From IMG/VR virus record IMGVR_UViG_3300014685_000009: DNA of 6,408 nt, one strand, 5' to 3'. Source of the DNA: a virus. This document shows positions 2,679 through 2,777 of this stretch, one piece after another. Both the position numbers and the translations under genes were made by a program. Every line of letters begins with the position of its first letter. Position 1 is the first letter of the stretch. A model generated the notes under the pieces. It made no database searches and was not told the DNA's origin. It saw only the letters and a program-made list of their open reading frames with translations.

Positions 2679-2777
2679 ATGTCGCATAATGCAGATTGAT
2701 GTTAAATAACACCGATTTGCTTTGGAAATAGTTGCAAATCGGCTATGTAACATAATCTGGACTACATTATGCGAAAT
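2679..2777. other. Pair of inverted dif-like XerC/XerD sites forming a long forked hairpin (putative CTXphi-type single-strand attP)
   Basis: Site A (+, 2679-2707) reads ATGTCGCATAA-TGCAGAT-TGATGTTAAAT. Site B (-, 2745-2777) reads ATTTCGCATAA-TGTAGTCCAGA-TTATGTTACAT. The arms are mutually complementary. The tip is closed by a perfect 9-bp stem, CCGATTTGC (2712-2720) with GCAAATCGG (2734-2742). Confidence 0.7.

Follow-up and report, generated by a model that had tools for sequence, protein, structure and literature searches.

Sequence evidence for a CTXphi-style folded attachment site and a duplex dif mimic in a filamentous phage of Acinetobacter

Introduction

The closest described system to the one reported here is the cholera-toxin phage CTXphi of Vibrio cholerae, an inovirus without an integrase whose phage attachment site (attP), a forked single-stranded DNA (ssDNA) hairpin built from two inverted and non-canonical XerC/XerD sites, is joined to the chromosomal dif site by host recombinases (mechanism and defining features in PMC3442271, summarising Val et al., 2005). 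Recent work on IMEXs (mobile elements that integrate by making use of Xer) keeps CTX-type elements within Vibrio. Here we analyse a 6,408-nt stretch of viral DNA, hereafter the window (IMG/VR record IMGVR_UViG_3300014685_000009), which, in one joint judgement, is very probably the 6303-nt circular genome of an integrase-less Acinetobacter inovirus that carries a CTX-style folded attP (sites A and B) and a third, duplex Xer site (site C) with a role in satellite formation and module exchange. An initial annotation, made from the sequence alone, had described sites A and B as a CTXphi-like hairpin.

Among Acinetobacter phages, Narancic (2024; PMC11209303) reported tandem arrangements, flanked by replication modules, for some A. 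baumannii filamentous prophages and guessed at the use of XerCD; as with CTXphi and Ypf, these prophages 'probably use host integration machinery'. The term attP is absent from that paper, as are 'dif' and 'Xer' from PMC12285184, and no hairpin attP is described in the other Acinetobacter phage and Xer papers searched; an earlier description in Renda 2016 (CRAphi), Das 2010 or Das 2013 is possible. Papers on UPphi and on border curation in Vibrio mention a hairpin attP for CTXphi only, and in the literature searched we found no description of folded-hairpin XerC integration outside Vibrio.

Results and discussion

The folded attachment site

The packaged (+) strand of an inovirus has the sense of the phage genes, and because the Rep, Zot, DUF2523 and coat genes all lie on the minus strand of the window we take that strand to be the packaged one. 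Sites A and B read directly from the sequence as the initial annotation had given them (coordinates in Table 1), and folding of both strands of positions 2670-2785, its suggested check, yielded -25.3 kcal/mol on the plus strand (z -6.54) and -26.3 kcal/mol on the minus strand (z -7.97), with 0/200 shuffles as low in either case. Among the 110-nt ssDNA windows of the whole genome, read on the (+) strand, none is as stable as the hairpin (-26.3; mean -8.7, standard deviation (sd) 3.5, a gap of about 5 sd), and the same scan found no other long hairpin. The pair list of the fold agrees with the earlier description of XerC arms paired at 10/11 positions (the mismatch being 2681/2775), of TG and CAGA in the spacers paired either side of a 5-nt bulge (2760-2764), and of a 9-bp tip stem with its 13-nt loop. 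For the XerD arms the agreement is partial: the bulged G of site A is present, at 2698, but in the minimum free energy structure only the inner 7 positions of these arms pair, the outer part being alternative or weak.

The window holds two inverted XerC/XerD site pairs with non-canonical overlap regions (7-nt and 11-nt spacers), and their predicted topology is, in silico, a forked hairpin like the CTXphi fold. Matches to the XerC arm (one mismatch at most) number three, against 0.24 expected (0/200 shuffles), and the arms of sites A and B agree with those of the host dif at 10-11/11 positions on the XerC side and 9-10/11 on the XerD side.

This architecture is widely conserved. Exact copies of TTAACATCAATCTGCATTATGCG, the complement of site A, are present in 81 IMG/VR contigs; when other loci are added, the distinct hairpin modules come to 74 and the site-B spacers, 10-13 nt long, to 16 variants, almost all of which have the form TGT-bulge-xAGA/xGA. 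All 74 modules fold alike, with the XerC arms, the TG, the 3' spacer end and the XerD arms paired; site A is always present and inverted, with a 6-7-nt spacer whose ends complement those of the B spacer. The tip stems are wholly different among lineages (GCCGATTTGC..., GCCCCAGTGAGA..., GTGAATTTGC..., and long branched tips) and are still stems. A single alignment of all hairpin lineages (A1), in which type 1 and type 2 tip stems lie in different registers, was dropped for covariation, and changes were counted in an alignment of 16 type-1-like sequences (A2). In A2, 94.6% of cells are paired, against 28-37% with slid partners, and changes on both sides were counted at six pairs (0/500 shuffles): the tip has four of these and the outer XerC arm two. 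Neither the bulged base nor one C.T mismatch of the XerD arm varies. The inverted arms are kept and covary among relatives, in line with what the initial annotation expected of a functional fold.

The same hairpin is found at 3887-3985 of Acinetobacter phage M02 (OQ693633; L119 among our loci), where the record has no annotated feature. From 5929-5956 onward, the expected place of site C, that record (OQ693633.1) carries a true dif, ACTTCGTATAA-TGTATA-TTATGTTAAAT, and host-like flanking sequence, so the M02 'complete circular genome' probably includes chromosomal DNA from an integrated array. Dulem virus 52 (PP511687.1, L120), an inovirus from lemur saliva, has an analogous forked hairpin at about 405-505 with a different A spacer (ATTTCGCATAA-TGTTATTGCAGA-TTATGTTACAA ... 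TTTACACATAA-TCTGCGG-TTATGCGAAT), and the design therefore reaches beyond the exact site-A sequence. In a few copies the hairpin is interrupted by an insertion sequence with an rve-type transposase, which separates the site-B side from the tip stem (L020 123-1270; also L016 1-190, L029, L030 and L041) and should disable the folded attP there.

Integration at the host dif site

The XerC arm had at first suggested a Pasteurellaceae host, a guess abandoned once Rep, used to scan genomes, brought up relatives in Acinetobacter only (A. geminorum 61%, A. pollinis 54%); exact-protein look-ups recovered the window phage and mosaics of it in many assemblies. As the initial annotation had foreseen, the XerC arm of the phage predicts the host site: the chromosomal dif of this Acinetobacter clade is ATTTCGCATAA-TGTATA-TTATGTTAAAT (full duplex site ATTTCGCATAATGTATATTATGTTAAAT), and its XerC arm equals that of site B. 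An empty dif with both flanks is available in L036, whose right flank is 98-99% identical to those of L013 and L021, with A. geminorum at 89% over the first 98 nt.

The most informative locus is L021 (61 kb). Its left end runs from chromosomal sequence ('ttaccacagc') through ATTTCGCATAA into TGTAGTCCAGA-TTATGTTACAT, the tip and the inverted site A; its middle holds a regulator, rep, site C, a coat gene (100% identical to the window coat), pIII, pVI and pI; after this full prophage ATTTCGCATAA is again followed by TGTAGTCCAGA, a second hairpin, a regulator and rep (a satellite); and at the right end ATTTCGCATAA passes into TGTATA-TTATGTTAAAT and the chromosome. The prophage in L013, whose Rep is 100% identical to the window Rep, is bounded in the same way and has a matching circular form in L019, and the same logic is repeated in L017, L037, L039, L040 and, with different arm sequences, L001. 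Measured against the empty site of L036, the junctions in L021, L013, L037, L040 and L001 lie exactly at the XerC-arm/spacer border of site B beside the chromosomal dif, where the initial annotation had placed them, and no tRNA- or integrase-type junction was seen among the integrated copies examined. One prophage end regenerates dif while the other holds the inverted sites as duplex DNA, and the pattern recurs in independent samples, in isolates and in one deposited phage genome.

A metagenome scan for the chromosomal left flank followed by the XerC arm and TGT returned five sequences: one empty dif, one dif followed by other DNA, three hairpin spacers and no site-C core. Among the left junctions scored, a hairpin spacer follows the chromosomal flank in 6/7 and the site-C core in none. 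Across all loci, a variant of the XerC arm (such as C or T at its position 7) is linked to the upstream flank and the spacer to the hairpin downstream, which places the crossover within ATAA/TGT, the expected XerC cleavage position. The site-B spacer TGTAGTCCAGA resembles the dif core TGTATA on the XerC side only; 13/16 variants begin with TGT, and the 3' ends of the variants bear no relation to ATA. Wherever rep gives the orientation of a locus, dif and the phage genes share a strand. Followed through a single XerC exchange, this is the product expected if the top strand of site B on the (+) strand is exchanged; a hairpin of the (-) strand would place site A at the junction and invert the prophage. 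Together with the conservation of the fold and the likeness to CTXphi, these sequence comparisons support integration at the host dif in the CTXphi manner, and with it the earlier proposal of an integrative element that exploits Xer.

In the model that best accounts for this sequence, fold, junction, orientation and conservation evidence, and whose enzymology we infer, sites B and A of the packaged (+) strand would fold back together into a forked hairpin with one XerC-binding and one XerD-binding arm, held apart by an overlap region in which TG and CAGA pair around the 5-nt bulge. By analogy with CTXphi, host XerC would cut the site-B strand at its likely crossover point, the arm/spacer border between 2767 and 2766, and exchange it with the top strand of dif, the match of the first 3-4 spacer bases (TGTA) to dif allowing ligation. 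The XerD side is unlike dif and a second exchange would, we propose, therefore not follow; the resulting pseudo-Holliday junction would be turned into a prophage by replication, again as in CTX-type elements, which need catalysis by XerC, use XerD as a structural partner only and integrate irreversibly. The predicted product runs on its left from flank L through the host XerC arm joined to the site-B spacer (the hairpin now duplex), the origin, the regulators, rep and the putative ssDNA-binding gene to site C, and on its right from the structural genes through the phage XerC arm joined to the dif core and XerD arm into flank R. A functional dif would be rebuilt on the right, and therefore, it is proposed, more elements stack there. 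Site C, a near-perfect duplex dif, would recombine at its XerC arm with dif or with incoming hairpins, giving RS1-like satellites (hairpin, origin and rep only), tandem arrays and module exchange between phages. For virion DNA, rolling-circle replication as in CTXphi would run through an array from each origin to the following one, and such a copy would carry the rebuilt hairpin. Arrays and satellites are observed, and an M13-like origin adjoins the hairpin.

Several other features were seen at or near these junctions. In one host background (L003 6516-11768; L016 5169-10421; L018 2425-7677) dif is followed at once by three neighbouring genes of 448, 531 and 774 aa, the first two matching Pfam Phage_integrase; the trio may be another mobile element at dif. 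L001 (16060-16095) has, some 100 nt rightward of the A. geminorum dif, an inverted degenerate dif-like sequence, AGTAACATAA-TATAAG-TTATGCAGAAAT, and in L035 (2587-2735, 3855) a separate element of about 1.3 kb lies between the satellite and dif with an inverted pair of its own, with 7-nt spacers (ACTTCGTATAA-TACGGCA-TTATGTTACTT / AATTCGCATAA-TGAGCAC-TAATGTTAAAT); the 'left flank' of L001 may be the end of a similar element. In L011 (1-960) a LysE-family gene adjoins a truncated pIII (break at window position 4872), which makes this contig either a decayed prophage remnant or a chimera.

Site C, satellites and module exchange

A third copy of the XerC arm, together with the satellite and array biology attached to it, did not figure in the initial annotation. 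This site C, with its XerC arm at 314-304 on the minus strand, comes straight after the putative ssDNA-binding gene, and a 21-nt direct repeat (300-320/2763-2783, 2463 nt apart) joins it to site B. Its 53 copies, in 49/109 oriented loci, invariably have TGTATA, ATATGTTAAAA and, as flank, ATCAATAACTTACG. Where a flank marks the end of the putative ssDNA-binding gene (at least nine such flank lineages), what comes next is site C in phages, the true dif core and the chromosome, or a site-B spacer, and flanks that mark the end of pI lead into site B or dif. In mosaics between phages the breakpoints coincide exactly with the XerC arm of site C and that of site B, with the structural block swapped from site C to site B, and L010 has the reciprocal junction, the XerC arm of the pI end joined to the site-C core. 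RS1-like elements of 2.0-2.5 kb take several arrangements: L018 has one beside dif, L016 a doubled and L079 a tripled form, in L021 and L024-L026 they follow a full prophage, and small contigs that look circular (L053 and others) also consist of them. These sequence patterns suggest recombination between site C and dif by XerCD, integration of incoming hairpins into site C, or both. By a parallel with the degenerate dif of the gonococcal island (drawn from the discussion in PMC9226527), the two invariant deviations in the XerD arm of site C may temper FtsK-driven loss.

More broadly, it is plausible, though in our judgement evenly balanced, that the phage runs a two-site Xer system: a folded ssDNA attP for one-way entry into dif, and a duplex dif mimic two bases short of a perfect XerD arm. 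The two sites would split the genome into a self-sufficient cassette for integration and replication, made on demand as an RS1-like satellite, and a structural cassette open to swapping, and lysogeny, satellite formation, array growth and modular evolution would all be driven by host XerCD. Such a system, if true, would be the phage counterpart of the pdif-module shuffling seen in Acinetobacter plasmids. As a separate observation, near 6742-6840 of L115 a site-C XerD-like arm and ATCAATA are joined directly to a hairpin tip and site A, a junction that no simple XerC exchange predicts.

Alternative explanations

Several points weigh against entry by the folded strand. The viral scan demanded the exact site-A complement, so that the invariance of that arm is partly by construction. 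The opposite strand folds almost as well as the packaged one, which was chosen because of prophage orientation and textbook knowledge of the strand that inoviruses package. Several of the supporting contigs come from metagenome assemblies or are scaffolds whose repeats contain N gaps (L001, L013, L004); those that hold the structural module of the window itself (L003, L004) break off in the repeat; and the window phage itself stands beside dif via the site-C arm only, its hairpin being found at the chromosomal left flank only in near-identical relatives (L040, L021). Ff phages carry a long imperfect (+) strand hairpin upstream of the (+) origin, used for packaging or complementary-strand priming. 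The position and stability of the hairpin described here fit that packaging signal or (-) origin, and part of its conservation could stem from such roles, with which a dual function is compatible. The products, moreover, are silent on the form of the substrate, as folded ssDNA and duplex site B would yield identical junctions. Duplex site B in the replicative form could then be the real attP, used in a VGJphi-like, XerC-first double-stranded exchange resolved by replication, with site A and the tip serving another purpose. The overlap region of known duplex Xer sites is 6-7 bp, against site-B spacers of 10-13 nt in 16/16 variants. VGJ-type duplex attP sites with non-canonical overlap regions do work (preprint 10.64898/2026.06.12.731946), but XerC and XerD cleave at the two borders of that region (PMC3442271), site A is always there, inverted, with a 6-7-nt spacer whose ends complement the B spacer and an XerC arm that covaries with that of B, and the whole geometry copies CTXphi attP(+); we consider the duplex route quite unlikely.

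Site C was itself considered as the attP after L003 and L004 showed dif beside its XerC arm. In that case integration would be reversible and Cf/Lf-like or TLC-like, and the hairpin would be a packaging signal or (-) origin whose arms are dif-like for other reasons. Phage-chromosome junctions beside dif at the site-C arm (L003, L004, L016, L018), an invariant match to dif at 26/28 positions, and a hairpin at the Ff packaging-signal or (-) origin position in a genome with no other long hairpin all agree with this. In the contigs scanned and the junctions scored, however, the chromosomal left flank leads into hairpin spacers or an intact dif and never into TGTATA-ATATGTTAAAA, site C is internal in the resolved prophages of L021 and L013, and contigs of the L003 type, which stop in the repeat, are explained by a full prophage followed by a satellite, as in L021 and L024; site C was rejected as the main route on the L021/L013 and left-flank evidence, and we regard it as very unlikely to be the true attachment site. 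The inverted pair might also be a functionless relic of prophage ends joined in a tandem array, the arrays having come about by homologous recombination or as assembly artefacts. The contig is a collapsed circle or tandem, and many supporting contigs are from short-read assemblies, as such a relic would allow, but across lineages the pairing of the tip stem and of the outer XerC arm is preserved by compensatory changes, neither the bulge nor the mismatch varies, the junction logic is the same in independent samples, isolates and a deposited phage genome, and phage and chromosome share identity over only about 15 nt, which is short for RecA-dependent recombination. A relic of this kind seems to us extremely improbable, and folded-strand integration at dif is retained as the preferred explanation.

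Genome organization

Bases 1-105 of the contig are identical to 6304-6408, and the sequence is on this account a 6303-nt circle or tandem unit; G+C is about 38%. The searches against Pfam and PHROGs covered all open reading frames (ORFs) of at least 60 aa plus small ones and recognized Rep G2P, Zot, DUF2523 and coat proteins only, with no integrase or transposase among the ORFs of the window. Whole-genome megablast against deposited phages gave no match. The 128-aa ORF occupies the rstR position and resembles the C-terminal (X) domain of G2P (PF05155, E 8e-4; phrog_702, E 4e-10), and may be an X-like replication repressor.

The assignment of the replication gene to the Ff-like gII type, made in the initial annotation, agrees with the Pfam matches of Rep and with a probable (+) strand origin that resembles the M13 gpII nick hairpin. 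On the (+) strand, about 80 nt downstream of the attP hairpin, we read GAGTCCAC-atctctggtg-GTGGACT-ttagtccggaaactaggac, to be set beside GAGTCCAC-gttctttaata-GTGGACT-cttgttccaaactggaaca in M13, which we take to be the gpII nicking region of Ff phages.

Table 1. Positions of the Xer sites, predicted structures and genes in the window.
Feature	Position	Strand	Details
Whole folded attP	2678-2778	-	probable functional form is the packaged (+) strand, i.e. the window minus strand
Site A (inverted partner)	2679-2707	+	XerC arm 2679-2689 ATGTCGCATAA; spacer 2690-2696 TGCAGAT (7 nt); XerD arm 2697-2707 TGATGTTAAAT
Site B	2777-2745	-	XerC arm 2777-2767 ATTTCGCATAA; 11-nt spacer 2766-2756 TGTAGTCCAGA; XerD arm 2755-2745 TTATGTTACAT
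Tip stem-loop closing the hairpin	2709-2748	.	9-bp core 2712-2720/2734-2742; 13-nt loop
Site C (duplex dif mimic)	287-314	-	ATTTCGCATAA-TGTATA-ATATGTTAAAA; canonical 6-bp spacer; 26/28 positions as host dif
Site-C flank	271-286	-	conserved, ATCAATAACTTACG
RS1-like module	304-2777	-	between XerC arms of sites C and B: hairpin, origin, two divergent regulator ORFs, rep, putative ssDNA-binding gene
Putative ssDNA-binding gene	314-634	-	106 aa; named by position alone; no Pfam match; phrog_4994, function unknown
rep, G2P-type replication gene	646-1875	-	PF05144 and PF05155
Regulator ORF	1969-2181	+	small ORF, divergent from rep
Regulator ORF	2174-2560	+	128 aa; opposite strand to rep
Probable (+) strand origin	2548-2596	-	GAGTCCAC-loop-GTGGACT, then imperfect palindrome; side-by-side reading with M13; Rep of G2P family
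46-aa ORF	2767-2907	-	within structural/assembly module
pI/Zot gene	3156-4346	-	Pfam/PHROGs
pVI-like gene, DUF2523	4343-4633	-	Pfam/PHROGs
pIII-like gene	4634-5893	-	Pfam/PHROGs
Coat protein gene	6021-6263	-	Pfam/PHROGs
Structural/assembly module	2778-6303, on through 1-303 (circular)	-	Pfam/PHROGs; exchanged as a block between lineages
Terminal redundancy	6304-6408	.	identical to 1-105

Implications

Per the literature searched, the Acinetobacter phages would be a second lineage, beside the cholera-toxin phage, to integrate by XerC through a single-strand hairpin. The same geometry is here paired with an unrelated Rep and found in another bacterial family, one that includes the hospital pathogen A. 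baumannii, which suggests that the hairpin design is a general solution, either convergent or transferable. The 74 hairpin variants and 16 overlap regions form a natural mutational series from which XerC/XerD requirements might be worked out. Folded-strand integration at dif also accounts for the tandem arrays, with flanking replication modules, in which Acinetobacter filamentous prophages occur; it sets exact rules for where their borders are to be drawn and flags the deposited 'complete' genome of M02 as probably holding host DNA. Through the behaviour of site C, in turn, phage evolution is tied to the process by which resistance genes spread on Acinetobacter plasmids, the shuffling of modules at Xer sites.

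Comparison with known systems

How close is the likeness to CTXphi? At the RS1/CTX junction of CTXphi (NC_015209), AGTGCGTATTA-TGTGGCGCGGCA (12 nt)-TTATGTTGAGG is followed after about 90 nt by CCGTAACATAA-TGGCGTA (7 nt)-TAATACGCATT, and its DNA fold has the XerC arms and TG paired, a 5-nt bulge on the 5' side and then resumed pairing, the same topology as in the Acinetobacter phage. Both are integrase-less inoviruses with two inverted, non-canonical XerC/XerD sites; spacers are 12/7 nt in CTXphi and 11/7 nt here, with the TG paired before the 5-nt bulge in both; the XerC-side bases match dif and those of the XerD side do not; the junction lies at the XerC-arm/spacer border, with a new dif on one side and tandem arrays; and the order of hairpin, origin, divergent regulator, rep and small protein is shared. 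In contrast, the host here is Acinetobacter (Moraxellaceae), Rep is of the Ff G2P type (PF05144/PF05155) where CTXphi has RstA (PF02486) and RstB (PF07459), most lineages have a simple tip stem of 9-12 bp where the CTXphi tip is branched and about 90 nt long, an extra duplex dif mimic (site C) lies inside the genome, and no toxin genes are present. BLASTP of Rep against RstA gave E 2.8, with no detectable similarity, and common descent with the CTXphi RS2 proteins is not indicated. By every sequence-level criterion the element appears to work like CTXphi, with a replication module that is not related.

The small elements of these arrays resemble the RS1 satellite in being sub-genomic (attP hairpin, origin, one or more regulators, rep and small protein) and in lying alone, in tandem or beside full prophages at dif (L016, L018, L021, L079). 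They differ in that their right end is set by site C, a dedicated dif-like site of the parent phage, and in having no rstC-like extra gene; such satellites are probably made by Xer recombination at site C. Site C in turn recalls the IMEXs of the VGJphi and Xanthomonas Cf/Lf types, as a duplex dif-like site in an inovirus that recombines at its XerC arm, but it is never at the chromosomal left junction and has a canonical 6-bp core equal to the dif core. The single duplex attP and hybrid prophage ends of the VGJ and Cf types were not found here, site C being internal in the resolved prophages.

Two further groups share the host genus. ATTTCGCATAA and ACTTCGTATAA are in the oligonucleotide table of a study of XerC/XerD binding and cleavage in A. 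baumannii (PMC7399989), and the plasmid pdif modules of Acinetobacter (PMC5790767, PMC7399989) have the same arm sequences and are likewise Xer-bounded blocks exchanged between replicons; in the present case phage genomes and chromosomal arrays act as the replicons, and a folded ssDNA site forms one of the boundaries. The filamentous phages Af, M02 and CRAphi (PMC11209303, PMC12285184) belong to the same phage group, the M02 Rep being 47.7% identical to that of the window phage. Taken together, the sequence comparisons support placing the window phage in the CTX-type class, as a member set apart by its host family, by a Rep that is not related and by an additional dif mimic within the genome.

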